A DNA stretch of 63,010 bases, filler included, from Octopus bimaculoides (taxonomy: Eukaryota): assembly GCF_001194135.2 (NCBI RefSeq). It is 6 parts of 5 records of this genome, joined end to end, with 100 filler letters (N's around TTAATTAATTAA, not from the genome) between each part and the next. Parts side by side here need not be neighbours in the genome. Positions count along the whole stretch, not along the records: positions 12,947 to 26,817 come from NW_026315823.1; positions 26,918 to 40,907 come from NC_069008.1; positions 41,008 to 50,476 come from NC_068982.1; positions 50,577 to 60,758 come from NW_026332636.1; 2 more parts are not named here. One strand, given 5' to 3'. The notes under the pieces are model-generated. The model ran no database searches and was not told the DNA's origin. It saw only the letters and a list, made by a program, of their open reading frames with translations. Shown piece after piece: positions 14,887-54,977 of the stretch. Every line of letters starts with the position of its first letter. Within the stretch, counting starts at the first letter, position 1. The translations under genes and the position numbers were made by a program.

Positions 14887-14926
14887 ACTGTCCGATGAAC
14901 GGGAACATGAAACTCAGAGTAACAGT
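14887..14926 (+). ncRNA. Degenerate type I hammerhead ribozyme (family 1)
   Basis: ACTGT-CCGATGA-ACG GGAA CAT-GAAA-CTC A GAG-TA|ACAGT. Helix I 5 bp, palindromic helix III, U4C in the core and one helix II mismatch. Confidence 0.6.
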
Positions 14927-15233
14927 CTTTTGTTATATTTCTGCTGCTTTTAAATAAAGCATATTACTCTACCTCTGGTATTTGAGTACTCTTTTTTCCA
15001 CCTTGTTGCACAGTTTATGTGCTTACTCCGGTATATATATATATATACACAATAGAAAATAGAAACTACACGTGGAAAATATATGAGGAAAGTAAGAAGA
15101 AAAAAACGAAAATGAACATTGAATATCAAAAATATAAAGGCTTTTTATGAAAAGTAGCGATAAACATATACAATTAGAGGAACTGAGGTAGAATTAAAAT
15201 GAATAAAAGTCATTATTTTGAATTGTGAGAGAG

Positions 15234-15280
15234 ATTCAAAGTCATACCGGTATCGTCATTGCTGTTCACTGGCTTTGAAT
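15234..15280 (-). ncRNA. Atypical hammerhead-like motif in the inverted pseudo-LTR (G3/C8 core, GAUA)
   Basis: Minus strand: ATTCAAAGCCA-GTGAACA-GCAATGAC-GATA-CCGG-TA|TGACTTTGAAT. 11-bp helix I with one mismatch and ACCGGT palindrome. Confidence 0.4.
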
Positions 15281-16433
15281 GCGCACCGATTACCAAACGG
15301 TGTCGGGTCTACTAGTCCCTAAGTAAAAAGATTGTGTGTACGGGAGGTAAGAAGTTCTGGACGTGGTGTAATTAGGGTCGATATAATACTGTAATATGAA
15401 TAGATATGGAATGTATGGGGGTTAGTGGGATTATTGGAAAGGTTAGTAGTATTCTGTATTATGTTGTGTTCATGTTAAGTTGTAGATGATATTTATTGAT
15501 GAAAGTTTCTTCTTTATTCATTCTTTGTTGTGCTGATTTGTTCTGTAAACATTGATAGATGGGGGAAATTAGGAAATTAGGATTAAGGTTCCTAGCACAC
15601 CTTTCTCTGTGTTCACTGACCTGTATCTGTCTATATTGTGGGAGACGGATTTGTTCTTTGTGGAGAGTGGTTCTTCGACGGAGTGATGTTCCTGTTTGGC
15701 CAATATATTGATTACTGCACCCTCAGTAGGTAATGGCATGCATTAGGTTTTCTGACAAAAAATTATCAAGAGCACAATGCAACCGAAATCATTGAAAAAA
15801 ATATTAGCCAACGAAAACTACATCGATTAACAACGGAACCAAAGTGAAAAAATGCGGTCGGCCTAACTGTGGCACATGCCCCCACCTCTTTGAGGGTACA
15901 GAGTGACACTTTAAACAATGTGAAATATTTTTAGATTAAATTAAATTTCACCTGTGCCTCGGAAAACCTAATCTATGCCATTACCTACTTAGGGTGCAGT
16001 AATCAATATATTGGCCAAACAGGAATATCACTCCATCGAAGAACCACTCTCCACAATGGACAAATCCGCCACCCACAATTCAGACAGATACAGGTCAGTG
16101 AATACATAGCAAGGTGTTCTAGGAACCTTAATCCTAATTTCCTAATTTTCCCCTTCTATCAATGTTCACAGAACACCTCAGTACAGCAAAGAATAAATAA
16201 CGAAGCAACCTTCATCAATAAATATCACCCACAACTTAACATGAACACAACATAATACAGAACACTACTAACCTTACCAATAATACCGCTAGCCCCCATA
16301 CATTCCATACACTTTTCATATTACAGTATTATATCGACCCTTAATTGCACCACGTCCAGAGCTACTTACCTCCCTTACACAATCTTTTTACTCAGGGACT
16401 CGTAGACCCGACACCGTTTGGTAATCGGTGCGC

Positions 16434-16480
16434 ATTTAAAGCCAGTGAAGAGCAACGACGATACCAGTATGACTTTGAAT
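16434..16480 (+). ncRNA. Atypical hammerhead-like motif in the direct pseudo-LTR
   Basis: ATTTAAAGCCA-GTGAAGA-GCAACGAC-GATA-CCAG-TA|TGACTTTGAAT. The core deviates at positions 3 and 14. Confidence 0.35.
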
Positions 16481-19400
16481 CTCTTTAACAATTCAAAATA
16501 ATGACTTTTATTCATTTTAATTCGACTTCAGTTTATCTAATTGTATATATTTATCGCTACTTTTCATAAAAAGCCTTTATTTTTGTGATATTCTATGTGC
16601 ATTTTCGCTTTCTTCTTACTTTCCTCATGTCTTTTCCACGTGTTGTTTCTATTTTTATTTTGAAACATATTTCTATTGTGAGATCGAAAATGCCACAGAT
16701 ACTAAACTCTGCAGTTAAAACTCTCAATGAAGATACTCTAAAGGAAGTAAAAGAGATTAACTCGAATTTGAGACTCTTAATTAACAAGATTGATGAACTT
16801 ACTCGATTTACACAAGAAGCAAAGGAAAAAGAAGAGAAAGGGCAATCTCTGGAACAACTTAATCAAGATTTGACCGAATTAAGCACCACCCTTCAATGTT
16901 TGCCTCACAATAATTTTGTAAATGAAAATCCCCCTACAGACTATACACACGACGGAACCTCCTCCACGTTTACATAATCAATTAAAAACCGGATTATCCA
17001 GATCTGGAATGAGAAACTTAAAGCCAGAAAATTTTCTTTCTGGAATATGATTAAAAACAACAAGGCAGAAATTTATGAACGCTGGTTAAATTCAACACCA
17101 AAACTTTTACCTCGTAAATTTCAAATTGAACCTATACCAAACGAGCAGGACCAACAAAGACAATGAAGGGAGAAACTAACAATGGAAAAAAAACGAAGAC
17201 AGAAATCGAACTCCTTAAGCTTAGAGCGTTAAGCAATGAACAAAAATATAAAAACATAGATGAGGAAATATATACTGAATCAAAGAAACATTCAGATGGT
17301 CAACGCTTGGAGAGTGTTTTTAAACTGTGGAAAACAACTTGTGAAGCTGAAGAAACCAATTCCCTACAACGCTGGGAAAGACAAGCTAATTTTTTCCTAA
17401 ACTACGAAACACAATTCAACAAAGAAAACATATTGTATAACCCCTTCCCGAAGAAAAAGAAACCAAAAACCCACGCAGAAATGACCCCACATTTATCTAA
17501 CTCAAACCACAGACAATCTAGGGGACACAACTCCACCGACCTAATCTCCCTTATACCCAAAAATAACATTCAAACAAGAAATAGGAATTCAGCTCGTAAT
17601 AAAAAATCCTGACGTAATTTTCAAGGACCCCTACATACAAATCAAAAGATCCATCCAAGCCTCCAGACTAACCTAAACTTTCGGGAACCACTTACCTACC
17701 AGTCTACCTCCAGCATCTCAGAGTCAATGGAAACATTTGCCTCCCACACTTAACCCTCAATATGGATACTTTAAGCATTCAACTAGACACACCTAACTAG
17801 ACAACATAACTTCGCCCTCCACACAAATACAAAATTAAAAATAAATTTTACCCATATCACATCAACCATAGACAATATAACAACCCTCAGTCCAACCATA
17901 ATCTAGTCCGCTACACAGTTACCCCACCACAAACATACTACCACAGACACACTACATCCCATTTTCTCCTCACCAAACCAAGCACAATGCAGATTTTCCA
18001 CAACAATCCACCTACTACAACCATTTTTTATACCTAAATCAGAGAAACATGTGAAATGGAACAAAATGTACAAGAACAACCGAAAATAATTAACTTATCA
18101 AAGAAAATCCTAAGTATTACACAAACTAAAATTCTACTAAGAGGTTTAAAGTTTACACCAATCCCTCACAGATCGAACCCAAAGGAAATTAAGGATAACA
18201 CTATGGATTTTTGTCGCAAATTGCGCCTCACAGAAGCACTTCACAACTACACCAGCGAAGATGACTCAATAGTAAGAGAACAAAAGCTAATACTGTCCTA
18301 CAAAAGGGAGAAATAAAGCACTTGATTTTTGTGAACACATTACCAATTTTCCTTTCACTGCCCTACAAAAACAAGGAATTAAATCCAACCTTAGCAGAAA
18401 TGAACGGAAAAGTCTAATCGAATAAAAAATTATATAAACCTGACCATTAAAAAAGCTGATAAAGGAAGTGCGGTAGTAGTGATGGACAGAATACTATAAA
18501 CATTTAATACACTCCATGTTGGAAAACAATATTTACTATGAGATGATAGTACAATACAACTCACAGAAGACACTTAAAAACTTATCCTCCTTACTTCAAA
18601 TACATGGAAAGGGCCTCACTAAAAAAGAAATTGACTATTTATCCAATATCAAATACAGACCAAGTCTATTCTACGGATTACCTAAAATACACAAAAATCT
18701 ACATATTTCTAAAGCTTGCAAAAATTCTTCAAGCCTATGCATTAATGTTCCTCCCCCTACTGACCTCAAACTAAGAACCACCATTGCTGGCCCCGTTTGT
18801 GAAACTCACAGTTTGAGAAATTTCCTCGACATCTTACTGAAACCGTTTCTAAAATAAGTGAAAAGCTTCATCAGGGATGACTTAGACATGCTTAACCAAC
18901 TCCCGAAGACAATAAATGAAGGAACGCTGTTAGTATCGTTCGATGTGGTGAAACTGTACACCAATATCCCACGCGATTCACCTTCTGGCTAGAAAAATAC
19001 CCAGAAGAGATCCCAGGACGCATCAACCACAAATTCATAATCGCAGAACTTAAATTAATCCTACTGAACAACTATTTCATGTTCGATACATTCTTCTATT
19101 GACATTAATGTAGAATTGCAATGGGAACCCGAGCTGCCCCAGTGATTGCGAACCTTGTAATAGGTTACCTAGAACTTAAAATATACCAATCGTCACTACA
19201 AAAATATGGCACCTCATTTCATTGCTATTTAAAGGAGAACTGGAAGAGGTATTTAGATGATTGTTTTATACTTTGGAAAGATAGCATGGACAAACTCTTC
19301 GATTTCAAAATAATGCTCAACAATATCAATAGCAACATACAATTTACCATGGAACACAGCAGCAAACAACTCCCTTTTCTTGGCATCCTAATTATAATAG

Positions 19401-19720
19401 TCGATAAACACATTGAAACAGACATCTATAAACCCACAGATTCAGAACAATACCTATTATTCAACTTATAATCTAGCGAAAAGAATCTGTACTATAGTTT
19501 CGGACAATAATACTCGTGAACGAAGACTCCCTGAACTCAGATCAATACTAATTAAACGAGCATAGGAAATAGATATACGGACATTAAGGGAAGTCAACCC
19601 ACGGAAGACACTTTAAAACTTATCCTCCTTACTTCAAATACATGGAAAGGGCCTCACTAAAAAAGAAATTGACTATTTATCCAATATTAAATACAGAGCA
19701 AGTAAGAAGAAAAAAAGCGA

Positions 19721-20036
19721 AATACATTCACTGGTTTTCAAAAATAGAAATATTAATATTTATAAGTCTCTCTAAAGGAGACTACGGCAGCGGTACTGGA
19801 TATTAATAGTTATCGCCAAGCCAACATGGCAGTCCAATGGACACAGATTCGTGTGTCACATAGCTAGCTAGAGGCGATGGCCGCTTGGAACTAATCAACG
19901 GCAGCATTCGTCCCATTTTTGAGACTGCCATGTTGGCTTGGCGATAACTATTAATATCCAGTACCGCTGCCGTAGTCTCCTTTAGAGAGACTTATAAATA
20001 TTAATATTTCTATTTTTGAAAACCAGTGAATGTATT
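19721..20036. repeat. 114-bp perfect inverted repeat with 88-bp spacer, a truncated member of the hammerhead family 2 repeat
   Basis: Arms 19721-19834 and 19923-20036 are identical by eye. 19836-20008 matches 25774-25946. Confidence 0.92.
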
Positions 20037-20082
20037 CCACTGAATTTAGGTAAATAATCCTTCGTACAGACGGTCGTACAGA

Positions 20083-23000
20083 CAGTCATTGTTGCTACCG
20101 TTGTTAAGTGAGTTCGTTCGTGTTTATTTGTTAATAATTTTGACTGTTATTTGTGAACTGTTTCTAAGTTATTTTCGCCCTACGGGGCAGAAAATTTCTG
20201 ATTTTTTTTTTTTTTTTTGTAAACTGTTAACCTTTTTAGGTTATTTTGAAAAATTCTTTTTCTTTGTCATTTGTGACAAGTTTCTCGTCCTGTCATTTTC
20301 CCGAGATGGGAGACGGCAAAAATTTCGATACACCAAGGGACACCCAGGCTAAACAAAGTTTCTCAGACGCCGTAGGCGGTAACATCATTGAACTGGAAGT
20401 AGCAATGGACAAACTCTTCCAGTTCAGAAAATTAATACAAAAATCTGGTGAGGAGACAAAACTGGTACCGCCCCCTGAAACCATACAAGCCATACGAGAA
20501 AAGACCGTAATTTATAAAGTTTATAATATAAAAGAAAATAGAATAGCGGATGTAAAAAATGAAATAGTAGAACGGTGCTTGGCACCAATATGGAACAAGA
20601 TTCGCTACGTTAGCCGAGGAGTGAGAAGCGCTACAATAGAAGCTCACTTCGAGTCGGCGAGCGTAGCGAAAGAAATTTCAACTCAAACTTTAAAAAACGA
20701 ACAGATCATGCTGCTGCCTACATACTTAGGCCGCAGAACGGCTAAAATCACTGTGGAGGATATACCCGTGGTTTTCGAAGTAATGTGGGTAGCAACTGCA
20801 ATAATTTTTGATGTAGAGGAGAAGTTATCAATATTGAGCATGAGAAAAAAAGAGGCGACGAACTGGAAAGGCCAGAGCCTTGAAATGGTGATTCAGGCAG
20901 ACAGTTCGACCCTGGAAAATCTACCAGATAGAGTCTTCGTGGTNNNNNNNNNNNNNNNNNNNNNNNNNNNNNNNNNNNNNNNNNNNNNNNNNNNNNNNNN
21001 NNNNNNNNNNNNNNNNNNNNNNNNNNNNNNNNNNNNNNNNNNNNNNNNNNNNNNNNNNNNNNNNNNNNNNNNNNNNNNNNNNNNNNNNNNNNNNNNNNNN
21101 NNNNNNNNNNNNNNNNNNNNNNNNNNNNNNNNNNNNNNNNNNNNNNNNNNNNNNNNNNNNNNNNNNNNNNNNNNNNNNNNNNNNNNNNNNNNNNNNNNNN
21201 NNNNNNNNNNNNNNNNNNNNNNNNNNNNNNNNNNNNNNNNNNNNNNNNNNNNNNNNNNNNNNNNNNNNNNNNNNNNNNNNNNNNNNNNNNNNNNNNNNNN
21301 NNNNNNNNNNNNNNNNNNNNNNNNNNNNNNNNNNNNNNNNNNNNNNNNNNNNNNNNNNNNNNNNNNNNNNNNNNNNNNNNNNNNNNNNNNNNNNNNNNNN
21401 NNNNNNNNNNNNNNNNNNNNNNNNNNNNNNNNNNNNNNNNNNNNNNNNNNNNNNNNNNNNNNNNNNNNNNNNNNNNNNNNNNNNNNNNNNNNNNNNNNNN
21501 NNNNGAGATATGCGAAAATTGGCGAGGAGGAATGGAAAGAAAAACTCCAAGAAATCGTTAAAGAACAATTAATCAAAGATGTCACCCAGGAGGTGATATC
21601 CCGAAAGCTTATCATCAGCCCAGCAACCACACCAACCCAGAGCCCGGTGGCAACGCCGGTGAAGAGCCCAGCAGCTAAGGGCAGTGCTGAGGAAGCAGGC
21701 AGACACAAACTGTCATGCTCCCTCTCACAACCGTAAGTAAATATTTTTCTTTTCTCGATGATTAAGTTAGGCTGTTTAAATGTACGTGGAATGGGGTCGA
21801 GATGGAAACAGGTTCGTTCCCTGAATGACCTCACAACACATAGAATAGATGTGGCTATTGTAACCGAGTCCAAGATGAAGGTACCTCAAGCGTTCTCGCC
21901 TCTTCTGAATGGTTACGAAAAATTTATTTCTCCTAGCCGAGGAGGTGCAGGCGTGGCAGTCCTTATCAAGAAGAACTTGGACTTACAGGTTAGTACTGTC
22001 TTTCTGGACCCAAAAGGTAGACTGGTTGTCCTGGATGTGACTCATGTGAGTAAGCAGTCCTTCAGGTTGGTAGCTGTCTACGCTCCTACAGAGTGTTGGC
22101 AGTCGGCTTTTTACCGGGACCTGGAGCACTTTCTGGTGACGTCAAAAACGGTAGTAATGGTAGAGAACTTCAACACTATTCTCGATGCACGGGTCGATAG
22201 TGTGGGCTCGACTGATATGAAGGGGAATCCTTGCCTCAAGAGGCTACTAGAAAGCTATAACCTAGTAGACCGTTACCGACTGAGTGAGCCAATCGTTCCA
22301 CAGTGGACTTGGAGTAATAACGATGGCTCACGCAGATCGTACTTAGATAGAGTATTCGTTAAGGACCTAGATAAGGATACTGTTAACTGTCCACAATTCT
22401 GTATTGTACCTAACACTGATCACAATCTTATGACGTGTGAGGTGCATGTAGATAAGTGTCATAGACAGGGACCCGGATACTGGAAAATAAACAAGTCTAT
22501 TTTGACTTGTGAATCTTTCCGTGCCCGGATTAAGGAGTTAGTTCAGAGGGCATTATGTGGCACCATCATTAATAATAGATGGTGGCACGCCCTCAAAAGA
22601 GCCATCCGTTTAGAGTCCACTAGATTTAGCAAACAGCTAAGTTTAGATGGGACTAAAAGAGAGGGTGAATTAGTTAAGAACTTAGACGAGGCATTAGAAT
22701 CTGGCTCCGCATCTAGAGTGTTAGCGGCGAGAACGGTCTTGTATCGTCACCTCAATGCCAAGCACGAAGGTTGCAGAGTCAGAGCTAAATTACGTGCAGG
22801 GAAACGAGAAGGAATTAACGTAGCCAGATGGGCACGTCGTGAGGAGTGTCAGAAGGGCAAGAAGTCCTATATTAAGTCTTTAACTGACGAACGAGGACGC
22901 AAGATCTATGGACAGGAGGAGATGCAAAAGGTTTTTCACNNNNNNNNNNNNNNNNNNNNNNNNNNNNNNNNNNNNNNNNNNNNNNNNNNNNNNNNNNNNN

Positions 23001-25652
23001 NNNNNNNNNNNNNNNNNNNNNNNNNNNNNNNNNNNNNNNNNNNNNNNNNNNNNNNNNNNNNNNNNNNNNNNNNNNNNNNNNNNNNNNNNNNNNNNNNNNN
23101 NNNNNNNNNNNNNNNNNNNNNNNNNNNNNNNNNNNNNNNNNNNNNNNNNNNNNNNNNNNNNNNNNNNNNNNNNNNNNNNNNNNNNNNNNNNNNNNNNNNN
23201 NNNNNNNNNNNNNNNNNNNNNNNNNNNNNNNNNNNNNNNNNNNNNNNNNNNNNNNNNNNNNNNNNNNNNNNNNNNNNNNNNNNNNNNNNNNNNNNNNNNN
23301 NNNNNNNNNNNNNNNNNNNNNNNNNNNNNNNNNNNNNNNNNNNNNNNNNNNNNNNNNNNNNNNNNNNNNNNNNNNNNNNNNNNNNNNNNNNNNNNNNNNN
23401 NNNNNNNNNNNNNNNNNNNNNNNNNNNNNNNNNNNNNNNNNNNNNNNNNNNNNNNNNNNNNNNNNNNNNNNNNNNNNNNNNNNNNNNNNNNNNNNNNNNN
23501 NNNNNNNNNNNNNNNNNNNNNNNNNNNNNNNNNNNNNNNNNNNNNNNNNNNNNNNNNNNNNNNNNNNNNNNNNNNNNNNNNNNNNNNNNNNNNNNNNNNN
23601 NNNNNNNNNNNNNNNNNNNNNNNNNNNNNNNNNNNNNNNNNNNNNNNNNNNNNNNNNNNNNNNNNNNNNNNNNNNNNNNNNNNNNNNNNNNNNNNNNNNN
23701 NNNNNNNNNNNNNNNNNNNNNNNNNNNNNNNNNNNNNNNNNNNNNNNNNNNNNNNNNNNNNNNNNNNNNNNNNNNNNNNNNNNNNNNNNNNNNNNNNNNN
23801 NNNNNNNNNNNNNNNNNNNNNNNNNNNNNNNNNNNNNNNNNNNNNNNNNNNNNNNNNNNNNNNNNNNNNNNNNAGTCCACCGTTCAGATAAACGGTTACC
23901 TAACGGAGCCGTTTTCGATCGAGCGTTCAGTTCGTCAAGAGTGTCCCTTGTCTCCCATTCTGTATGTTTTGGCCCTGGAACCATTACTGCGGAGGCTGGA
24001 GAAGTTCGGTGGCAACCCAGATGAGATTGGATGCGGTTGGTTCTCTTCTGCTTACGCGGACGACGTCACCCCAATCGTGTCTAACGAAGCACAACTACCT
24101 CGTGTAGAAGTTGCTCTCCGACGATACGAAGCGGTGGCAAGAGCAAAAGTTAACAAGGATAAGTCGCTCGGTTTGCGCCTCGGCACCTGGAGGAACAAGC
24201 CGATATCGTCCAGTGTCGTCGGACATTGGACGGATGGTCCTGTTAAGTTGCTTGGAGTTTGGCTTGGTCCGAACTCCCAGACGGAGAAGAATTGGAACGA
24301 GGTAGTGGAAAAGGTGGAGGTCATAGTACGGAGGTGGTNNNNNNNNNNNNNNNNNNNNNNNNNNNNNNNNNNNNNNNNNNNNNNNNNNNNNNNNNNNNNN
24401 NNNNNNNNNNNNNNNNNNNNNNNNNNNNNNNNNNNNNNNNNNNNNNNNNNNNNNNNNNNNNNNNNNNNNNNNNNNNNNNNNNNNNNNNNNNNNNNNNNNN
24501 NNNNNNNNNNNNNNNNNNNNNNNNNNNNNNNNNNNNNNNNNNNNNNNNNNNNNNNNNNNNNNNNNNNNNNNNNNNNNNNNNNNNNNNNNNNNNNNNNNNN
24601 NNNNNNNNNNNNNNNNNNNNNNNNNNNNNNNNNNNNNNNNNNNNNNNNNNNNNNNNNNNNNNNNNNNNNNNNNNNNNNNNNNNNNNNNNNNNNNNNNNNN
24701 NNNNNNNNNNNNNNNNNNNNNNNNNNNNNNNNNNNNNNNNNNNNNNNNNNNNNNNNNNNNNNNNNNNNNNNNNNNNNNNNNCTGACAAGCACTCTGGCTA
24801 ATCCACAAGTCGGGCAAAGCTGGCTGCGGAAATACCACCTCGGTATTCTATAGAGGGCTGGAAGAGGCAAAAATGACGACGTCCTAGGAGGGTTCGATGA
24901 GAACCAATTTACCAACCTGTTCCAGAAAACCTTCAGGCCGGGGTATTTGGATAATTACCAAAAATCCCTGACTTGGCAGTGTTACAGGAACGCTTTACCT
25001 GTTCGCTATAAGTTATCTCGGCACGAAATGGCAGTGCCACCGACATGTCCAAGATGTGAGTTGGACAGTGAAACTGTCCAGCACGCTTTTGTACATTGTC
25101 GGGAACTTTCGAGTTTGATAATTTAAGTAGAACACGTGTTGTCACATCTGGGACGAGTACAGCTATCGGCTGGATCCATAATAACGATGATACCGCCAAC
25201 TGGACTCTCAAAGGAAGGTGAGGCATGTTTTTACTGTACGGTTGCAGTACTGAAAGAGTGTGTTTGCAGGACTAGAATGGAAGGATTAGTGACAGGGTCC
25301 TTCGTCTCTAGCCCCGGTTTGCTATCATACTTCAGAATATGAAAAACGATGGAAGGATGTGATGAGAAAGGTGGGTGTCAGGAACCCAGCTTAATCATCG
25401 AGAAAAGGAAAGGTTAGCTGCTGGGCCTTATTGGCTACCAAGTTCGATCTTTTAAACTTTGCATTCTCTTTTCTTTCTTTGTGTCTTTTTCTTTATTTAA
25501 TTCTTAGTTTAAAGTTCTAGTTTAAAGTTATCCAAATTTAATTATATATGTTAATTTTTATCCCAACGCTCATTCGAACTCATATTAACATTTTTGTATT
25601 ATTTGTCCTGTATTGTCTTTTCTGTATATAGATCATTATGATCGTAATAAAG
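20083..25652 (+). mobile_element. Tx1/L1-clade LINE, apparently full length (ORF1 20306-21736; ORF2 from 21758 to about 25390), with large N gaps
   Basis: APE motifs LGCLNVRG, VTES, VAVYAPT, NFN, SYLDRVFV, TDH, GPGYWKIN. RT motifs RQECPLSPILY, SAYADDVT. C-terminal CPRCELDSETVQHAFVHC. T-rich 3' UTR ending AATAAA. Termini approximate. Confidence 0.9.
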
Positions 25653-25676
25653 ATTTAAGCGACGCCTGCTGGGTTC

Positions 25677-25728
25677 GGCTGCTCTACATTGATAAGAGGC
25701 AATACCTCGAAACTAGTCTGTAGATGCC
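25677..25728 (+). ncRNA. Type I hammerhead ribozyme with U3-A8 core (family 2)
   Basis: GGC-TGC-TCTACA-TTGATAA-GAGG CAATA CCTC-GAAA-C TA G-TC|TGTAGA-T-GCC. Predicted cleavage after C25718; helix III is the palindrome ACTAGT. Confidence 0.75.
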
Positions 25729-40243: not shown

Positions 40244-40633
40244 GTCTGTCTCTTTGAGATGCAAAGAGACAGACTTACGCTGACGATCCTGCAGATATTT
40301 ACTTATGTAAAATTTAACAGGTGAAACCATGGTACGTAGGTTAATCGTATTTTAATTTAGTATTTTTTCATTTGTCTTGCTTGTTTACAGTCTGTTGTGT
40401 CGCTAAATTTTCTACTGAGAACATATTTTTTCGTGGTTAGATGATTCGGCATCTATTTCTAGCATTTAGGAATCCACATTTGCTGGTCATTCCTCTTATT
40501 TTGTATGTAATATAATTTTAATCTTCAGATTTTTTTAATATGGTAGACCACTGGTTTTAATTGATTAATATCAATTTTTACCCTCATTAATAAATTTTAA
40601 ATTATATATATATATGTATGTATTACGAACCAG

Positions 40634-41376: not shown

Positions 41377-41410
<34 letters not shown>

Positions 41411-41796: not shown

Positions 41797-41806
41797 AATA
41801 TCTTAT

Positions 41807-42186: not shown

Positions 42187-43200
42187 TATGTGAACATCTA
42201 TGCATCTCTGCCATCGATCGATGAGATTATTTATGTCTCGTTGATAAAAACTTATTGGCTTTGATGCTAAAAAATCTTTGAAAGCTGATTCCACCTCTGG
42301 TTTGGACCTGAAAGTTTTATAGCTTAAAAACGTGTTTAAAATGCTTTTAAAAACGGTAGTCAGTGGATGAAAAATCAGGAGAATATGGAGGATGTGGTAA
42401 AGTCTTGTATCACGAATCTGTGAGTTTCTTCAGCATCATTCTTGCAACATGTGGCTTTGCATTATCGTGGAGCAGAAGTGAGCCACGCCGATTCACCGAG
42501 TCTCATTTTTAGCAAGTGAGCATGCATTTCAGCGAGTTGATTGCAGTAAACCTCAACTGTAATGTTCTGATTGGCTTCCAGAAAGCTGTAATGGACAACA
42601 CCAACTGCAGACCACCAGACAGTCACCATAATCTTTTGCTGATTAGGAGACGCATCACGATCAAGTCATTGACCTGATCGTTTACGGTTATCATAAAGGA
42701 TTCACTTTTCGTCACAAGTGACTATTAGGTCAAGAAAAGGTTCATTGGTGTTTCGCAGAAAGGGCATCGAGCACACTTCAAAACACCGAACCTTTTGATT
42801 TTCATTGAGCTCATGCGGTACCAATTTATGGAGCTTTTTCACCATACCAATCTTCTTCAGACTGCGTGAGACCGTTGCAATACCGACACCAAGTGTCTGA
42901 GACATTTCTCTGACACTTCGACGTGGGTTTTGTTCAAAAATTGCTTTCAATTGTTCATTGTCAAGACTGCATGACCGTCCTCTACCTTCTTCACCTTCAA
43001 GGCTCTCATCACCACTACGGAATTTCTGAAACCACCTTCGTACAGTGCAATCACTTGTGGACCCCTCTCCCCATGCTCTGTTGATATTGGCAGCAGTTTG
43101 GGAAGCATTGTGCCCAATATTGAACTCATGCAAAAAAGTAAGCGAAGGATTTTTTTATCATGTTCATAAATAAGGGCATCTATGCTTCATTAATGTTTTC
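42187..43200 (-). mobile_element. Mariner (Hsmar1/cecropia-like) transposase pseudogene
   Basis: TVRRWFQKFRSGDESLE, LVPHELNENQK, IVTCDEK, TVWWS, LPHPPYSPDFSSTDY. Confidence 0.9.
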
Positions 43201-44174: not shown

Positions 44175-44209
<35 letters not shown>

Positions 44210-44558: not shown

Positions 44559-44630
<72 letters not shown>

Positions 44631-45020: not shown

Positions 45021-46976
45021 TGTGTTAATGAAAGATTTATTTAATTAAACACATGAAGGCGACAATCGCCAGTCAACTTCTGCTTCGTAGAAGTCCGCTT
45101 GACTGTAAATCAACTTCATTGCAAATCAGCTCCCTAGCTAACCCACAGTGAAGTTCCTAACTATAGTTCGCCCGTCATAAATCCTTGGGCAGTGCCCTAC
45201 ATATAGCTCCCTCCACCCCAGAAATGTTGACTGTCATTTGAACCGGGAAGGCGTTTTAACTGCCCTGCCCGTGCGTGTGGTTGCTCGGCTCTTTGGTGAC
45301 TTTCTGACTTTCTGTTCGGAAAGAACTCTCCTGGCACTGTAAGAGGGGCACCATACATCATTTCCGCGGAAGAAGTGTTGAGATTTTCTTTTGGGCTGGT
45401 GCAAATTCCCAGCATCACCCATGGAAGTTGATCAATCCAATTGGGCCCGATAAGTCCAGTTGTCGAGGATTCCTTCAGGCAGCGGTGAAATCTCTCCACT
45501 AACCCGTCGGCCTGTGGATGGTAGGTTGTTGTGCGCTTCATTGTGATTCCAAAAAGGTCACACATGTCATTCCACAGCTTTGAGGTGAATTTGGGCCCCG
45601 ATCGGATGAGATGCTGTTTGGGACACCGAAACGGACAACTCAGTTTATGATGAAGGCTCAGTGGGCTTCTTGTGTTCTCGTGCTGCGAAGAGTGATCGCC
45701 TCAGGCCAACGAGAGTAGCGGTCTACCAAGGTAAATAGGTACGAGCAACCCTGTGAAAGTGGTAGCGACCCGACAAGATCAATGTTAATGTGACTGAAAC
45801 GGGCCTGTAGTGGTTCATAGCTGCCTTGGTTTGTTGATAGAGGATGCAGGTTTTGGTCCACTTCCCAATTTGCTTGGCTATACTGTGCCAGATAAATTTG
45901 CTTCACAGCAGGCGCCGTATGGCTCAAGTACCCGGGTGAGACAGTCCGTGAATGAAGTCGAATCCTTCATGCGCTAGGCTAATTGGACGATCGGTCGTGG
46001 CTTTCTAGTGGATACATCACACAGTAGGGTTGTGCCGTTGGAGCTAAAATTCACATCCCGCAAGGAAAGTGATGTGATGGTGATGCGATAGGCCCTGATC
46101 TCGTCAGCTATCTGTTGGGCTGCAGCCATAGCCTCGCACTCCAGGCCTTCCGTTATTGGGGTTAGGTAGGTGTAAGAGCAGGTAGAGGCATGAGAGAGTG
46201 CATCAGCGACCGGTTTGCCTTTTCCAGCTATGTGTTGGATGTTTATGGTGTACTCAGAAATTGCTGATAGCTGTCATTGCTGGCGTGCAGACAAAGGCTC
46301 TGAGAGCTTGCTCATAGCAAAGGTGAATGGTTTGTAGTCTGTGAACACTGTAAACGTGTGGCTCTCAAGAACATAGCGAAAGTGGTGGACACCTAGATGG
46401 ATAGCCAGCAGTTCCCTGTCAAAAGCACTGTATTTCTGTTCAGGAGGTCGTAGTTGTCTACTGAAGAAGGCAAGTGGTCGCCACTGACCATTGATGCGCT
46501 GTTCCAAAACGTCCCCAATGGCTGTGTCGGAGGCATCGACTTTGAGTGCAGTCCAAGCTGACATATGAGGACGGGGCAGCATGGTTGCTTTAGCCAGTAC
46601 TTGTTTTATGGATTTGAAGGCTGAGGTCATTTCCCCATCCCACTCCACCTGTCTTTTTGAACCATCTTTTGACAGTGCCTTGTATAGAGGTCTCATTACT
46701 CTTGCTGCAGAAGGGATGAAGCGATGGTAAAAGTTTGCCATGCCCAGAAATTAATGCAGAGCCTTGCTTGTGGTAGGACGTGGAAAGGATAAGATAGCTT
46801 TCACTTTTTCTGGCAGGGGTATAGCACCAGCACTTGTGATTCGATGTCCCAGGAAATCGATTTCTGTAACACGAAAAGTGCACATGTCGGGGTTGATTAC
46901 TAGACCATACTGTTCGCCCGCAGCGAAGTTCTTGTCTACAGTTCGTCCGTCATAAATCCTTGGGCAGTGCCCTACA
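45021..46976 (-). mobile_element. Ty3/Gypsy LTR retrotransposon with 181-bp 3' LTR and a large 5' deletion
   Basis: RT end (IDFLGH, FLGMANFYHRFIP), RNase H (VDASD, WRPLAFFSR, YSAFDRELLA), integrase (FSHINIDLVG, VDRYSRWPEA, YHPQADGLVER). Polypurine tract before LTR 45021-45201 (TG...CA); 5' LTR stub at about 46916-46976. Confidence 0.93.
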
Positions 46977-47305
46977 AGGCCTTCTATGGTCAGTGGAATA
47001 GCAGAATTTTTAATGTCCGAGAGTAGAAATTCGGAGTATTCCTAATGCAACTCCTGGATGTCTACATTCTCATTCCGGAACTTTGAAATTTGAAAAAAAT
47101 TGCAAGTCCGCTGGTGTCAAGAACTCCAGGTACCCCGCTTGTAAAACCGGCGTGTGGGTATTTCGAAGGGTAACGTATACGAGAAAGAGAACGAAGAATG
47201 AATTTAACACTTAATCAAAGTTGTGCTTAATTCATTCTTCTTTTTCTTACACACACATACACACATACACCCACAAGTGCGTGTGTGCGTGCGCATAATA
47301 ATAAT

Positions 47306-47522
47306 CCTTTCTATTATAGGCACAAGGCCTGAAATTTGGGGTGGAGAGGTGGCTAGTCAATTACATCGACTCCAGTGCTCAGCTGGTACCTATTTCATCG
47401 ACCCCGACAGGATGTAAAGCAAAGTCGACCTCGGCGGAATTCGAACTCAGAACGTAAAGACAGACGAAATGCTGCTTAAGCATTTTATCCGGCGTGCTAA
47501 CGATTTTACCAGCTTGCTGCCA
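47306..47522 (-). mobile_element. SINE family B
   Basis: Shared core GTCGACCTCGGCGGAATT(C/T)GAACTCAGAACGTAA. Confidence 0.85.
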
Positions 47523-48329
47523 TTGGTACTAAATAATAAATAGTCACTGTTACTGTTTACAATATTTAATGCCTCAACAGAAAATAATAAATGGCAAGAA
47601 ATGAAAGGAAAGGAATCATTGTCGAAAGATATTGTGGTTAAGACGCTCCATTTGTTTCACTAAACCCTCCAAGGCGGTGCTCCAGCATGACCGTAATCCA
47701 AAGGATGAAACAAGTAAAATATCCTAGACATAAAACTTGGGTTGATCTGAAGCTTCAGTAAAGACACTCACCCAAGATGCCGCGTGGTAAGATCGAACCA
47801 GGAAACTCGTGATCACCAAGCGAACATTTTATCCATTCGGCTAGAACAGCTTCTACAGTCAATTCATCAGAATGTAACAGGAAACTACTACTTCAGATTT
47901 TAGTACAGTAGTCCATGATCGTCGACGCCTGTAGGCACGGCACATGAAGACGAAGAGACCGTCGATTAGATCAACTCCAGTACTCGAACAGCCACGATAA
48001 TATATATCAATCAGCAAAATATCGAGACAATAGACAAATTCACCAATTTGGATAGTAATCATCAGTAACAATGGTGATACTGGGAATTATGTCAACCATA
48101 GAACTGGCAAAGGTGAAATAAAGAGGAAGACTTCAAACTACATGGTGCAGAACATTCATAACCAACACCATTGCTCAATGTTGCTCGAGAGCACAGGAGA
48201 AACTGGGACTATAATGTACTTGAATAATTCTTAATATATCGATGCTCGGAAGGATGAAAAGCCAGGATTTGAAGTTGGCGCCACTTAAATACTTAACGAA
48301 ATACTACCGATTCAGCTGTTTCACTGGCA

Positions 48330-48770
48330 TAAGGCCAGCATTAGGAGGACAAAGAGCAGTCGATCACATCGACCCCAGTACTTGACTGGGTCTTTATTTC
48401 TTCGAATCCCCAAAGAATCCTGTCAAAACTGACTTTGACAGGATTTGAACTCAGAACTTAAAGAGTCAGAAAAATTTCGGAAGGTATTTGATCCGACATT
48501 TTAACGATTCCGCCATTCCAGCGTTCTTGAGTCCCAAAAATGATTTTACTTTTGTTCCTGATGTAGGCACAAGGCCAGCAGTCAGGAGTAAGGGTGGGTA
48601 AGTCGATATCATCAACACCAGTACTTGATAGATTCTTTCTTTTATCGACCCCAGAGGGAAGAACGGCAAAATTGATCCGGCGGGATTTGAACTCAGAACG
48701 TAAAGAGTCAGAAGAAATATCCCCAATGCATTTTATCGGATGCTCTATCGATTCTAACACCCATCGCCTT
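48330..48770 (-). mobile_element. Two tandem diverged SINE family B copies
   Basis: GGATTTGAACTCAGAAC core at about 48442 and about 48683. Confidence 0.7.
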
Positions 48771-49321
48771 TGAGTTAAAAAAAAATAGCGTGAGCCTTGC
48801 GACACACTGATATCCAGCAGCTAACTAGCAGATAATGTACAGATTCTGATTTCAAATATGAAATTACGGATATTCTGTATGGAGGAATTGTTTCAATTTT
48901 CCAATATATTGAATAGTTAACTGGAACCTGGGAAATGTTATAGTCTTCCGTATGGTCTTGAGGCATTTCATGAAACAACGAAGATGAAAAGAAGACGCGA
49001 AGTTGTGTTATTATAGTGTTGAGAGAGGGTGGTGGGAGAGAGAGTTTGTGTAACACAAACAGAAGTATTTCATGGCACAATGTGCCTCGGCAATCAAGAC
49101 AGTGTTCCTTCTAATCTGTGTTTGTTTTACAACTAAGAAACGGAAAAATATGCGCTCAAAGTTTTGAAAAATGAATTTATATTTTTATAATTGAAGAAAT
49201 TTGATCGATGGTTACTCGCCTGGATGCACACATACTTTGTAAAGAAAAGCAATACAATACAAAATTTCTCCGTGCGCGCGCACACATAAACATACACATA
49301 TAAAAACCTTAGAAGGAATAT

Positions 49322-49722
49322 TGCGGACACAGCTCTATAGTTAAAGAGTTCGCTTTGCAACCACCTGGTTTCGGGTTGAGTCCCACAACACGGTACTTTG
49401 GACAAGCGTTTTCTATTTTCTTCTGTAGCTCCGGGCTGACTAGCACCTTATGAATGGATTTGGTAGACAGAAACTGTGTGGAAGCCCGTCGTATATACAA
49501 GCACAGACATACATATAAGTGTGTGTATTTGTGTTTGTCCCTCACACCAACTAGTGTTGGTTTGTGTACGTCCCCATAACTTAACGGTTCGGCAAAAGAG
49601 AACGGTAGAACAAGTACCAAACTTTAAAAGAATCAGTACTGGAATCGATTTGTTCGACTAAATCCCTACAATACGGTGCCCCAGTATGGCCACAGTCCGA
49701 TGACTGAAGCAAGTAAGAAAGA
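49322..49722 (+). mobile_element. SINE family A
   Basis: Homologous to 41807-42186. Confidence 0.82.
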
Positions 49723-49819
49723 ATACAATTTTCTGTGCGCGCGCACGCACACGCACCCACGCACGCATGGAATATCGTGAGACCTCCTTGTCGACGCAGT
49801 CGTGAAATACGCTTAATAT

Positions 49820-50035
49820 TCTTTTCTACTCAAGGCACAAGGCCCGAAATTTTGGGGGAGGGGGCCAGTCGATTAGATCGACCCCCAGTGCTCAACTGGT
49901 ACTTAATTTATCGACCCCAAAAGGATGAAAGGTAAAGTCAACCTCGACAGAATTTGAACTCAGAACGTAAGGTCAGACGAAATACCGCTATGCATTTCGC
50001 CCGGCGTGCTAACGTTTCTGGCAGCTCGCCGTCTT
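49820..50035 (-). mobile_element. SINE family B
   Basis: Well-preserved copy homologous to 47306-47522. Confidence 0.85.
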
Positions 50036-50368
50036 AATAAGCTTAATATTAAAGCAAAAAGACTTTGTCTCAAGGTGAATGGTTAATCCAGTTTTATGAG
50101 AAACTCAATATGCTTTATTGTATGCAAGCTCTCATTTGACTGATGGTTAATTTAAATAAAGGATGCTTCCTAGAAACAAGAATATTTCATGACTTTTTTC
50201 AATTATGGCCGCCTCTATGTATATATTTCGTTTGCCACGTCGCTGATACAACTGGGTCTATATTTTTCATAAATTATGAAGGTGCCGGTAAACTCCGAGC
50301 CCAGAATGTATGTATGTATGTATGTATGTATGTATGTATGTATCTATCTATCTATCTATCTATCTATA

Positions 50369-50412
50369 TCCACTCGTGACCGAGGCAATGGTCTTCCTCG
50401 GTCACGAGTGGA
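50369..50412. repeat. Perfect 17-bp-stem hairpin embedded in tetranucleotide microsatellites
   Basis: TCCACTCGTGACCGAGG-CAATGGTCTT-CCTCGGTCACGAGTGGA. Confidence 0.9.
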
Positions 50413-50576
50413 CGGCCATCATCATCATGTATGTATGTATGTATGTATGTATGTATGTATGTATGTATGTATGTATNNNNNNNNNNNNNNNNNNNNNNNN
50501 NNNNNNNNNNNNNNNNNNNNTTAATTAATTAANNNNNNNNNNNNNNNNNNNNNNNNNNNNNNNNNNNNNNNNNNNN

Positions 50577-50788
50577 ATCGCAGCCATTATCATACCGTTT
50601 TCAGACCGTGTGTTATAAGACCCACATTATCCAAATGTTTTTATAAATGCTGAAGCGTCTCGTATCATAAATATTTAGAGAAAATTATATTTTGAGCAAC
50701 TGTTCGGACATTAGGCTCCCTCCTTTGTGTAACTATTCGGACATTAGGCTCCCTCGTTTGTATGTAATATAATAATGTATGGCGAATG
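50577..50788 (+). repeat. Arm of a long-range inverted repeat (partner 57473-57684) containing a 33-bp tandem duplication
   Basis: Aligned by eye to the reverse complement of 57473-57684. Confidence 0.88.
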
Positions 50789-51066
50789 CATCAGTCTTTT
50801 ACCGAGGAAAAATATGATGAAGCGCGTAAAATATCTATACCTCAACAGCTCATAACAAATCACTCATTTTTTTCCAACTGGATTTCAGTTTGTTTTTCCT
50901 GCGACTAAAACTACGAAACGTATTGTTTTCCATTTTTTCCCCCCATTAAATTTAGTGCCAAATAGGTGTCTGTAATAGATTTGTGACTATTCGGTGGTAC
51001 AGAAGTAGTTTTTTGACTTCTAATTTTTAGCGATATAGGTACTCATGAAGTACCTTTGTATGTATG

Positions 51067-51103
<37 letters not shown>

Positions 51104-51855
51104 TTAGGGAAAATAACCAGGTTTCAAGAACTCATCGATGAAAATCCACTGTCACATATAGAAAAAGTAATAATTAAAAGCACAATAAATTAGTGTAATA
51201 TAAAACAAAGTAAATATCATAAGATAAAGATAATATTTTCCCTAAAACTATGTATTTTATATATATTTTAATCTATAAAGCTCAATTTNNNNNNNNNNNN
51301 NNNNNNNNNNNNNNNNNNNNNNNNNNNNNNNNNNNNNNNNNNNNNNNNNNNNNNNNNNNNNNNNNNNNNNNNNNNNNNNNNNNNNNNNNNNNNNNNNNNN
51401 NNNNNNNNNNNNNNNNNNNNNNNNNNNNNNNNNNNNNNNNNNNNNNNNNNNNNNNNNNNNNNNNNNNNNNNNNNNNNNNNNNNNNNNNNNNNNNNNNNNN
51501 NNNNNNNNNNNNNNNNNNNNNNNNNNNNNNNNNNNNNNNNNNNNNNNNNNNNNNNNNNNNNNNNNNNNNNNNNNNNNNNNNNNNNNNNNNNNNNNNNNNN
51601 NNNNNNNNNNNNNNNNNNNNNNNNNNNNNNNNNNNNNNNNNNNNNNNNNNNNNNNNNNNNNNNNNNNNNNNNNNNNNNNNNNNNNNNNNNNNNNNNNNNN
51701 NNNNNNNNNNNNNNNNNNNNNNNNNNNNNNNNNNNNNNNNNNNNNNNNNNNNNNNNNNNNNNNNNNNNNNNNNNNNNNNNNNNNNNNNNNNNNNNNNNNN
51801 NNNNNNNNNNNNNNNNNNNNNNNNNNNNNNNNNNNNNNNNNNNNNNNNNNNNNNA

Positions 51856-52260
51856 AAAAAATGTCTCCCCCAGCGTTCAGTATTCCCCTTTCGTTCCGGT
51901 CTTACGACCCTCCATGTTTGTTTTCGTTCAGTTTCCTCGTATGTCTCGTCTCCACTGTCATAATTTTTTTTTTGTTCCCAACTTTGAGCCTCCATAAATC
52001 CTAAAGTTTATTTTAGAATTGATAGCAGCAACTGTCTTTGATGACTCATTGTCGTCTGAATGCTCGAAATGGGGAATAGATAAACAGACGACAACTGATG
52101 AAGGATCCATTTTTTGTGTCAACCTGTCCTCTTTCCATTTTTTTTCTCGTTTGATTACATATTTCACTCGTTTTTGTCCCGTAATTACTGTCCTCGTCTT
52201 GTATCTATCTCTCGTGTGTATGTTATTTGCATTGTTGGTGATGTCTTGTACCCATATATG
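51856..52260 (-). mobile_element. Possible decayed PLE N-terminal coding fragment
   Basis: Frameshifted ...IPHFEHSDDNESSK...EAQSWEQKK...ETRHTRKL; the resemblance is weak. Confidence 0.3.
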
Positions 52261-52776
52261 CATACATATGTATATTATTCATTACATATGTAAATATATA
52301 TTTATTTATATATTTATTTATTTAGGTAATATTTATTACAAAAAAACGAATGCTGTGTACGCACAATAAATCAATGGTTGGTTACTTATTTCATTGATTG
52401 GTTATGCGTACATGTCTCGCGATGTTGCATATGCGTGGTGTATAGAGCATGATCATCGTGTTGTGACTTGACTGGCTACTTTAAAAATAAATGAAGCAAA
52501 GTCACAAACAAAAAATATTCTAACATATTCATAGCTGGACATGATCTATTGTATTGATTGCTTACAAAAGAAAAATGCTGAAAATATAATTGCCGACCGA
52601 GAAGAAAGAATCTTGCTGCGTCTTGTAGAAGGCTAGTTGTGGTACATCGTGAGTGTCCGAAACCGTTTCTTGCTCGAAGCAGTCTGTCCGGGTAACCGAG
52701 GTGGTCTGGTCTTAGTGGTCTTCCTAGTGTGACTGCTCAAAGTAGTGTACACGAATATTCGAGGCCGTCTGACTTA

Positions 52777-52866
52777 GTGTGTCTGTCCCCCCACCATCAC
52801 TTGACAACCGATGTTGGTGTGTTTACGTCCCCATAACTTAGTGGTTCGGCAGAAGTATTCGATAGA

Positions 52867-52868
<2 letters not shown>
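52777..52868 (+). mobile_element. Partial SINE family A
   Basis: CCACCATCACTTGACAACCGATGTTGGTGTGTTTACGTCCCC block. Confidence 0.75.
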
Positions 52869-52926
<58 letters not shown>

Positions 52927-53367
52927 NNNNNNNNNNNNNNNNNNNNNNNNNNNNNNNNNNNNNNNNNNNNNNNNNNNNNNNNNNNNNNNNNNNNNNNNNN
53001 NNNNNNNNNNNNNNNNNNNNNNNNNNNNNNNNNNNNNNNNNNNNNNNNNNNNNNNNNNNNNNNNNNNNNNNNNNNNNNNNNNNNNNNNNNNNNNNNNNNN
53101 NNNNNNNNNNNNNNNNNNNNNNNNNNNNNNNNNNNNNNNNNNNNNNNNNNNNNNNNNNNNNNNNNNNNNNNNNNNNNNNNNNNNNNNNNNNNNNNNNNNN
53201 NNNNNNNNNNNNNNNNNNNNNNNNNNNNNNNNNNNNNNNNNNNNNNNNNNNNNNNNNNNNNNNNNNNNNNNNNNNNNNNNNNNNNNNNNNNNNNNNNNNN
53301 NNNNNNNNNNNNNNNNNNNNNNNNNNNNNNNNNNNNNNNNNNNNNNNNNNNNNNNNNNNNNNNNNNN

Positions 53368-53416
<49 letters not shown>

Positions 53417-53869
53417 GGTGAGTTCATTTTGATGTATGATACATGTTTCTGTGTTGGCAATTATACCTATCCTAAACAAAATGGCATTACTTTTTGACTC
53501 ATCCTCGTATATATATAAAGAGAGGGAGGGAGAGAGAGAGAGAAAGATATATGTTAGATAACTAGCTTGTTAGCTAGATAGATAGATTAGAGAGTGGGGG
53601 GAATATATAGGCAACAAAATCCGGGAAGCCGAACTTAGGAACTCACGACCTTTGGTACATACACAGGCACACACAATTGGATATGTACATCGGGATACAT
53701 AATCAGCACGGTTTATCCATCAAAAAGGATATAGCTAAGATGCTCTGTTAACAGTGGGTAATAAAAGAAGGTAATTGATTTAACAGATGTAACAAGTTCA
53801 AACAAGAAATATCCGGTTATTCGTTGAAACGTTGGGATATAAACTGATTAAATAATTTTATTAAAATTT

Positions 53870-54072
53870 TTGCACAAGGCTAGCAATTTCAGTGGATGTT
53901 TTAAGTCGATTACATCGACCCCAGCGTTCAAGTGGTACTTTATTTTATCGACTCCCAATTGGATAAAAAATAAAATTGACCGTGGTGTAATTCGTACTCA
54001 GAACGTGTAGGCAGATGTAGTGCCACTCAGCATTTTGTACGTGCGCGACAACGATTCAGACAGCACGTCGCT
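53870..54072 (-). mobile_element. Diverged SINE family B
   Basis: GATTACATCGACCCCAG...CTCAGAACGT core. Confidence 0.75.
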
Positions 54073-54278
54073 TCATAAAATTGAAGTATTGATCACTCCT
54101 TGCTGCTGTTTGTGAAAATCAAACTAGAGATTAATCAATAGATAAATATTGATTGATTTGTTATAAGTATATATTTTTTTTAATTTTCTCAATAGGTAAC
54201 TTGGTATGAATATTTTACGCGTTTAAGTAGCCATATTTTACGAGTAAAAAGAAGACAGACGTATACTTATTCATTTAT

Positions 54279-54372
<94 letters not shown>

Positions 54373-54451
54373 ACACATATGTATATAATGTACTGATCTG
54401 TGATAGAAAATTCAACAAAAAAGTACTCCATCTGGTGAGAGATATACATAT

Positions 54452-54795
54452 ATTCTTTTACTTGTTTCCATCATTTGACAGCGGCCATGCTGGAGCACTG
54501 CTTTTAGTCGAATTAATCTACACCACAATTTATTCTTTGTAAGCCTAGTACTTATTTTATCAGTCTTTTTGTCGAACCGCTACGTTACGGGGACGTAAAC
54601 GCAGCAACATTGGTTGTCAAGCAATGGTGGGAAGAGGAATACAGACACACAGACTCATACATTTATGTATATATTATACGACGAGCTTCTTTCAGTTTCC
54701 ATCTACCAAATCCACTCAGAAAGCTTTGGTCGGCTCGATGCTATAGTAGAAGACACTCACCCAAGGTGCCACACAATGGGACTGAACCCGAAAAA
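54452..54795 (-). mobile_element. SINE family A, 5'-truncated
   Basis: Reverse complement of the 41807 copy. Confidence 0.85.
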
Positions 54796-54876
54796 GAATA
54801 TATATATATATATATATAGTTATATATATATACATACATATATCAAACATAAATTGAAAACAGAACACAAAGGATA

Positions 54877-54977
54877 TCGCGGTACACGTGTTTCAAGCTT
54901 TATAAACAATCTGTTATTACATCACCATAGGTATATTATTGATATAAAAGATGGTGTAAAGCTCTCCTCAGCCGCAA
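54877..54977 (-). ncRNA. Type I hammerhead ribozyme with long helix II (family 6)
   Basis: Minus strand: TTGCGG-CTGAGGA-GAGCTTTA...TAAAGCTT-GAAA-C ACGT G-TA|CCGCGA. Canonical core, 8-bp helix II base and helix III ACACGTGT a perfect palindrome; predicted cut between 54883 and 54882. Confidence 0.8.

Follow-up and report, generated by a model that had tools for sequence, protein, structure and literature searches.

Minimal type I and permuted hammerhead motifs of probable Penelope-like element origin in a stretch of Octopus bimaculoides DNA

The stretch analysed, called the window below, comprises 63,010 nucleotides of Octopus bimaculoides DNA (GCF_001194135.2), joined from six parts of five records with filler between them; it has 33% G+C and 7,260 N, and consists mostly of microsatellites and transposon debris. 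Scattered through it are minimal type I hammerhead ribozyme motifs, two of them inside a decayed Penelope-like element (PLE), and one hammerhead fold whose blocks stand in the order S-G-C (Table 1). Sites are named by their core positions, and the core and stems I-III of each were audited block by block.

Type I motifs and a permuted fold

A first-pass annotation, made from the sequence alone, had listed nine type I folds in about seven families and had taken them for minimal, dimer-type hammerheads related to PLEs. This reading is right as regards minimal, dimer-type hammerheads of several PLE-related families, and the list itself was revised. Five of the nine sites (25689, 32443, 33345, 35530 and, on the minus strand, 54971) are intact, with a stem I of 5-6 bp, a stem II of at least 4 bp, a self-complementary stem III and the conserved core CUGAnGA / GAAA / NUH (or its U3-A8 form). 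The same core is present at 40280, a sixth intact hammerhead absent from that list; stems I and II form at all six, and stem III is both short and palindromic. The core fails at the other four sites, of which 14892, 15269 (minus strand) and 16445 are degraded and 35072 is doubtful, one reading of it having no stem I and the other A6U with a 3-bp A-U stem I, and an N gap following 18 nt downstream. With 40280 in place of 35072 the count of about seven families holds, and the stem III palindromes that had been named are present at or near their assigned places. Sites 33345 and 35530 belong to the same family and differ in a stem I pair, which is G-C in one and A-U in the other; they lie on the same strand, 2.2 kb apart, and their stem III palindromes have a central G and U. 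By base pairing, a heterodimer of the two could pair all nine stem III positions; no sign of their co-transcription was seen. The right arm of the inverted pair 54926-55246 keeps only the 5′ half of a hammerhead, with its core at 55201. By eye, the 14892 motif and the Hydra-2_aMil hammerhead (PMC8557442 File S2) have a 4-bp stem I and the 9-nt stem III type in common. Two CTGAGGA/GAAAC matches on the minus strand, at 34864 and 37312, were dismissed by eye, having no stems.

The intact sites exceed chance. A strict type I descriptor found five sites in the window and none in any of 30 local dinucleotide shuffles, while a second descriptor, run in all six block orders and against 400 shuffled windows, found six palindromic type I sites (40280 being added) against a mean of 0.0025 per shuffled window. 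Descriptors loosened for 35072, for 14892 and for the 15269/16445 pair gave matches in 1, 1 and 2 of 100 shuffles, figures that overstate significance, the descriptors having been tuned to the sites. An Rfam search at E ≤ 10 yielded no hammerhead among the best 150 of 171 matches, the matches listed being repeat-driven. Single-strand folding energies are undistinctive for most sites (z from -2.0 to +1.3), which is what dimeric or pseudoknotted folds would be expected to give.

Reads from four runs were aligned to the stretch 25450-26465, and two organisms (X1 and X14) were compared; what is said of variants concerns 40 listed rows of 172, what is said of indels 12 listed rows of 20, and what is said of joints 15 listed of 39. 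Summed depth is not a copy number. The stem II pair 25697/25707, A-U in the window, reads G and C in 87% and 81% of the family depth in X1, in 71% and 70% of the depth in X14, and in 39 of 46 and 49 of 63 RNA reads, all counted per position and without linkage on single molecules. Paired changes, these and the one in stem I of 33345/35530, count in favour of the hammerhead reading. In the 25689 family, summed depth is about 53 thousand over the hammerhead and climbs about 20-fold towards the 3′ end, where it reaches about 1 million, a shape that 5′ truncation predicts.

The scan of all six block orders gave one further match in the window, in the order S-G-C, at 26267-26326. This most unusual motif falls within the range covered by the first-pass annotation, yet it was not listed there. 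The fold has a perfect core with all core nucleotides present, a stem I of 7 bp, a linker of 3 nt, a stem III of 4 bp and a stem II paired at four of five positions after one extra base. It stands in a repeat family, 25945-26465, with a summed depth of 0.9-2.6 million and the highest RNA coverage within the aligned stretch, and other copies of this family continue past the (TA)n point with further sequence.

Penelope-like element context and alternative origins

A decayed PLE is recognizable at 15033-19601, where the domain order in P0001/P0003, their tblastn matches to the window and Pfam reveal one open reading frame (ORF), accompanied by pseudo-long terminal repeats (pLTRs) and containing, in order, a reverse transcriptase (RT), a zinc-finger linker (CX2-5CxxC) and, at the C terminus, a GIY-YIG domain. 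The best named protein match of the RT fragment comes from Octopus sinensis, at 75% identity over 59% of the query. Most motifs had been described as lacking an RT nearby, which fits the solo copies but not two of the nine, 15269 and 16445, situated in the inverted and direct pLTRs of this element about 190 nt past the GIY-YIG stop. Both carry C3G, A14U and mismatches in their stems, and 15269 has in addition G8C, by which the 3-8 pair is restored. In two related PLE loci (L142 and L148) the hammerheads are intact, with a canonical core; they align to the window pair without gaps and have the same stem III palindrome, so that the window pair is a degenerate orthologue, and since the damage is common to both arms, it is older than this insertion. 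The family may either have transposed without a working ribozyme or possess a core variant. The RT, linker, C-terminal GIY-YIG, inverted and direct pLTRs and a hammerhead after the stop are those of Neptune PLEs, unlike which the window copy is decayed and its hammerhead degenerate; the clade is assigned from motifs, with Nematis still a candidate. Beside the inverted arm, 19595-19703 is a 95% duplicate of the internal RT stretch 18557-18665, possibly a template switch.

The remaining context is anatomical. Self-BLAST showed that five families form tail-out inverted pairs (15033-16676, 19721-20036, 32023-32565, 35399-35625 and 54926-55246); copies are solos or such pairs, and most end in (TA)n. 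Of 12 sites, 8 have a (TA)n tract no more than 200 nt downstream; among random positions, 822 of 4377 have one within 230 nt. The four sites without a nearby tract include two that lead into N gaps and one that leads into the ORF. Inverted 5′-truncated copies and (TA)n targets are described PLE anatomy (PMC8557442). For comparison, the best 80 of 369 confirmed PLE loci were taken from metagenome contigs, the presence of a 3′ end not being a criterion; a compact type I hammerhead was found on the sense strand of 32 and on the antisense strand of one, with 0.4-0.6 in shuffles, and a compact non-circular hammerhead in none of the 80. No PLE relatives were found in viral contigs. Some of the metagenomic loci (L170:4735, L179:6217, L190:2517, L192:27 and 6920, L195:5427, L202:86, L206:6252, L212:3423 and L213:4827) have similar flanks and carry type I hammerheads in which stem III is long and closed; this group is probably active as monomers.

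Published minimal type I hammerheads of PLEs resemble those of the window in their short stem I, palindromic stem III that cannot close, mostly solo copies, opposite-strand pairs 100-700 bp apart and U3-A8 variant, a core swap already described in Schistosoma PLEs (PMC4209133). They differ in that stem II inserts reach 59-70 nt in the window and that the Neptune pair has C3G and A14U. Also comparable are hammerheads of the Hydra clade (Craig et al. 2021, PMC8557442 File S2), which, by eye, have the U before GAAA and the unpaired base after the core seen in several window solos, as well as a U/U-flanked stem II, an 8-9-nt palindromic stem III and (TA)n targets; unlike them, the window copies have no visible Hydra ORF, and their sequences differ from Hydra-1_oBim. 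The type I hammerhead of Hydra-1_oBim, from Octopus, is tabulated in the same file. The type I part is therefore known biology, with PLE minimal hammerheads described and an Octopus example in print, and the word 'uncatalogued' in the first-pass annotation was too strong.

What is observed are the motifs and how far they exceed chance, the inverted pairs with tails outward, the (TA)n ends, the one pair inside a decayed PLE and the paired stem changes. From these it is very probable that the motifs are hammerheads likely derived from the 3′ pLTRs of several PLE families and left mostly as single, truncated and likely inert copies, with one further repeat whose SGC hammerhead is likely of the Naiad-PLE type. 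A pLTR location of the type I motifs other than 15269/16445 is likely, given the inverted arms, (TA)n ends and truncation profile. In the mechanism proposed, the transcript of an active, partially tandem PLE would hold two type I hammerheads, whose palindromic stems III would pair and allow the RNA to be cut; the RT/GIY-YIG protein would then copy the cut RNA into (TA)n tracts, and copying would mostly stop early and often flip, leaving truncated and inverted fragments. A lone type I copy without a partner would cut poorly and is probably inert, whereas the SGC form, with its own closed 4-bp stem III, is predicted to cut as a monomer after C26271. A single minimal hammerhead motif failed to cut in vitro in the literature, and since only one of nine Xenopus dimers cut (bioRxiv 2026.07.22.740005), activity is not to be taken for granted. 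Several points weigh against this derivation: six type I families have no visible coding partner; the consensus and copy structure of families is known for 25450-26465 alone, from the best 40 of 172 variant rows; the arms of the Neptune pair have three to four damaging changes in common, and their parent may already have been without a ribozyme; and RNA reads on the 25689 and 25945 families are about equal on both strands, with no pile-up of ends.

The first-pass annotation had gone further and proposed a retrozyme or circular RNA repertoire. What defines a non-LTR retrozyme is a tandem array whose units each contain a hammerhead (PMC7229834), and if the sites were of this kind, they would be tandem 170-400-nt non-coding repeats processed to abundant circular RNAs. 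Retrozymes, like the motifs here, are non-coding, carry type I hammerheads and have a PLE origin (PMC7229834; bioRxiv 2026.07.22.740005), being derived from PLE pLTRs according to the latter source; they occur in a mussel (PMC7229834), RNA reads of the 25689 family exist, and two copies of that family would stand in register about 320 bp apart if the intervening long interspersed nuclear element (LINE) were removed. Such an identity is nevertheless unlikely, for no head-to-tail unit of 170-400 nt with two same-strand hammerheads occurs within the window, where copies are solo or tail-out inverted, and the hammerhead bin of the 25689 family holds about 5% of the summed depth at its 3′ end. The RNA data consist of one standard RNA-seq run, about 6% of its reads and one 1-kb stretch: over 25450-26465 the reads are mostly 90-99% alike, there is no position where many molecules start or stop, and no circle joint is among the best 15 of 39 joints. 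Tandem hammerhead units and circular RNA, the marks of non-LTR retrozymes, are both unseen in the window stretch analysed. Among the listed runs that contain the stretch, none is recorded as RNA.

The LINE at 20307-25657 is near full-length, has a copy of the 25689 family on either side, and yielded no short target-site duplication; by its domain order it is presumed to be L1/Tx1-like, and a homologue search with its endonuclease region gave nothing among longer proteins. A fused element, made up of this LINE and the 25689 hammerhead and bounded by PLE-like terminal repeats, was entertained: a 173-bp direct repeat and an inverted arm frame the LINE, the hammerhead comes directly after its 3′ end, and the missing duplication would fit. 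Such a fusion is highly improbable and was ruled out by read depth and contig ends: summed depth over the 3′ untranslated region (UTR) of the LINE is about 0.5-1.5 thousand, where the hammerhead family has 24 thousand to 1 million; contigs of the 25689 family begin at about 25658 with different upstream letters, and LINE contigs of the second organism stop aligning at 25658-25662.

Naiad elements and the permuted hammerhead

Non-circular permutations of RNAs were first reported in 2023, a host and an evolutionary route being then lacking; among the hammerheads, type SGC came from metatranscriptomes and type CSG from soil metagenome DNA (Eckert et al. 2023, PMC10085705). The window motif agrees with these types in its block order, the short linker between stem I and II strands, the extra base after CUGAnGA and a possible I/II interaction helix, and a 3-nt linker together with one additional base following the core is found in the tested SGC ribozymes as well (PMC10085705). 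Unlike the published SGC and CSG examples, none of which comes from the genome of a known organism, the window copy stands in an animal repeat, has a mismatched stem II, and its cutting is a prediction.

Naiad PLEs were reported to be without a canonical hammerhead, eight 'half cores' being flagged (Craig et al. 2021, PMC8557442), and were used in 2021 as an argument that PLEs proliferate without hammerheads, the ribozymes being possibly mere parasites (PMC8557442). Their published consensus records were read by eye and not by computation, over the last ~280 nt of 53 of the 54 sequences and in passages around core words. Read in this way, 18 of the 54 records contain permuted hammerheads. Seven of the eight nematode records (Nbra-1, -2 and -3, Hcon, Hpol, Asuum and one Pristionchus) have a complete type-CSG fold, where stem I has 5-6 bp, stem II 4-5 bp and stem III 6-12 bp, with an interaction helix of 8-13 bp and a linker of 2-5 nt, and the letters differ in every helix. 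The S-G-C order appears in 11 further records, namely Amil, Aacu and Anas (near-identical), Obim and Ovul (near-identical), Chem-3, Movir-2, Ptep, Smim, EuTe and one unattributed, with stems I of 4-8 bp and III of 4-13 bp; many of them have a stem II that is weak or offset, or have none. In the part viewed of the other 36 records no permuted hammerhead was seen. The 3′ ends of Naiad_Obim and Naiad_Ovul have the stem I strand CTGCCCA and the block order of the window motif, and stem III differs on both sides.

It is probable, judging from these folds and records, that Naiad PLEs kept a hammerhead, in many cases non-circularly permuted (CSG in nematodes; SGC in cnidarians, arthropods and octopods), in which stem III would close within a single copy and cutting would need no dimer partner, and that the 25945-26465 repeat is one of these elements or a non-autonomous form derived from one; non-circularly permuted ribozymes would thereby have the first homes found for them in animal genomes. 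This copy of the window repeat has the (TA)n end of Naiad PLEs (Craig et al. 2021) and, by eye, the S-G-C order and stem I strand of the Naiad_Obim/Ovul 3′ ends; unlike Naiads, it has no linked ORF with an N-terminal endonuclease, and its flanks are not visibly homologous. As its flanks show no visible match and the PMC8557442 supplement does not contain a 10-letter word taken from the motif, the window family is a different, unlisted one, of putative Naiad origin. Among the 150 proteins listed by a HMMER search with the GIY-YIG domain of the window, no long one matched at its N terminus, and no Naiad protein was obtained. In the cnidarian and Octopus Naiad ends (PMC8557442 File S5), the partner of the strand preceding GAAA can be the strand immediately upstream of stem I instead of the one that follows the core, a possible off-state or further rewiring. 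Identity of the tested CSG-1 ribozyme with the Pristionchus Naiad motif was considered and dropped, the common letters falling in different helices.

The rival to a Naiad hammerhead in this repeat is that an abundant repeat of unknown type shows the blocks in this order by chance; this is the less probable account but has several points on its side. The motif was found after the fact, and in the 400 shuffled windows eight non-circular matches arose (about 2% of windows for any such match), three of them SGC and two as good as the real one. Stem II contains a U-U mismatch, the I/II interaction helix is weak, with four contiguous pairs by eye that compete with a 9-bp extension of stem III, and the predicted fold is inactive, with a competing 9-bp hairpin, in a fold model without pseudoknots. 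A minority subfamily (47 reads at a depth of ~750; X14 and X15 contigs) replaces 26205-26280 including the S block. The window holds no Naiad-type ORF motif (N-terminal GIY-YIG, CxC, DKA RT), the 25945-26465 fragment being non-coding, and no similarity to Naiad_Obim outside the motif is visible by eye. Scans with the SGC and CSG patterns picked out 13 and 8 loci in viral sequences, where no hammerhead fold was seen, and gave no match in metagenome contigs. What speaks against chance is that the block lengths agree with those of the tested SGC ribozymes in linker and extra base, that the listed variation inside the motif (among the best 40 of 172 variant rows) touches nothing but the linker, the pair at the end of stem I and a flanking base, deleted at 26326, and that the Octopus Naiad consensus ends have the same block order and stem I strand.

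The nine motifs listed at first add little by themselves, and the permuted one matters more. If Naiads do carry rewired hammerheads at the usual position, self-cleaving RNA would seem to have been kept as part of the PLE cycle, both circular and non-circular hammerhead forms would occur in one element family, and the permuted form would explain why one big PLE group seemed free of hammerheads. What appears new, on present comparisons, is the SGC motif with the Naiad pattern, the layout having been found reported only outside animals; in titles and abstract openings, under coverage that leaves out most subscription journals, no work linking permuted hammerheads to PLEs was found.

Feature coordinates and minor elements

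Table 1. Hammerhead motifs, repeats and mobile-element remains in the window, with strand and basis of each assignment
Feature	Position	Strand	Remarks
Degraded minimal type I hammerhead	14881..14934	+	core 14892; U4C; stem II of 2 pairs; element end in (TA)n at ~15030
Inverted 5′-truncated pLTR copy, Neptune-type PLE	15033..15755	-	self-BLAST, 90% over 725 bp to 15959-16676; tblastn
Relic hammerhead in inverted pLTR	15279-15235	-	core 15269; G3-C8, A14U; stem I/II broken
Upstream partial PLE copy	15756..16676	+	CxxxxCxxC linker, GIY-YIG 15935-16255 (Pfam), 3′ UTR; tblastn with P0001/P0003
Relic hammerhead in direct 3′ UTR	16435-16479	+	core 16445; C3G, A14U; palindrome 4/6
Decayed PLE ORF (RT)	16690..19601	+	3′ end lost; tblastn, homologue search
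Tail-out inverted pair of 25689 family	19721..20036		truncated arms without hammerhead; self-BLAST
LINE, presumably L1/Tx1-like	20307..25657	+	ORF1, AP endonuclease, RT, zf-RVT (Pfam); ends approximate; depth step and contig ends at ~25658
High-copy PLE-type tail element	25658..25946	+	carries the 25683-25724 hammerhead; descriptor, audit, read depth
Intact type I hammerhead, U3-A8 core	25683-25724	+	predicted cut after C25718
Fragment of separate, very abundant repeat family	25945..26465	+	depth, loose contig ends; end in (TA)n at ~26470
Type-SGC (non-circularly permuted) hammerhead fold	26267..26326	+	six-order scan, audit; layout compared with tested SGC ribozymes (PMC10085705)
S block	26267-26278	+	GUC; predicted cut after C26271
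G block	26282-26293	+	after 3-nt linker
C block	26307-26326	+	SGC fold
Inverted truncated arm of 32443 family	32023..32129	-	only 3′ half of hammerhead; self-BLAST, audit
Intact type I hammerhead, long stem II	32438..32525	+	descriptor, audit
Intact type I hammerhead, GUU site	33340..33400	+	same family as 35530
Doubtful relic	35072..35108	+	GAAAC and 4-nt palindrome, no proper stem I; audit, loosened descriptor
Tail-out inverted pair	35399..35625		direct arm carries intact hammerhead 35524-35586
Intact type I hammerhead	40272..40342	+	stem I 8 bp; 8-nt perfect palindrome
Intact type I hammerhead, long stem II	54877..54977	-	left arm of inverted pair 54926-55246

An exact 74-bp duplicate at 14753-14826 adjoins a 10-N gap; it was considered as a tandem repeat and was taken instead as a probable assembly overlap. 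At 27873-27992 lies a 120-bp self-inverted hairpin with a weak, sub-threshold Rfam match to mir-15/16 and a partial copy at 31644-31698, possibly a miniature inverted-repeat transposable element. Other transposon fragments were seen at 6549-7133, 9965-10447, 29714-30076, 42702-43154 and 45197-47041, of Mariner/Tc1 type (at 9965 by eye only), ISXO2-like, or from a long terminal repeat retrotransposon (RNase H, integrase).

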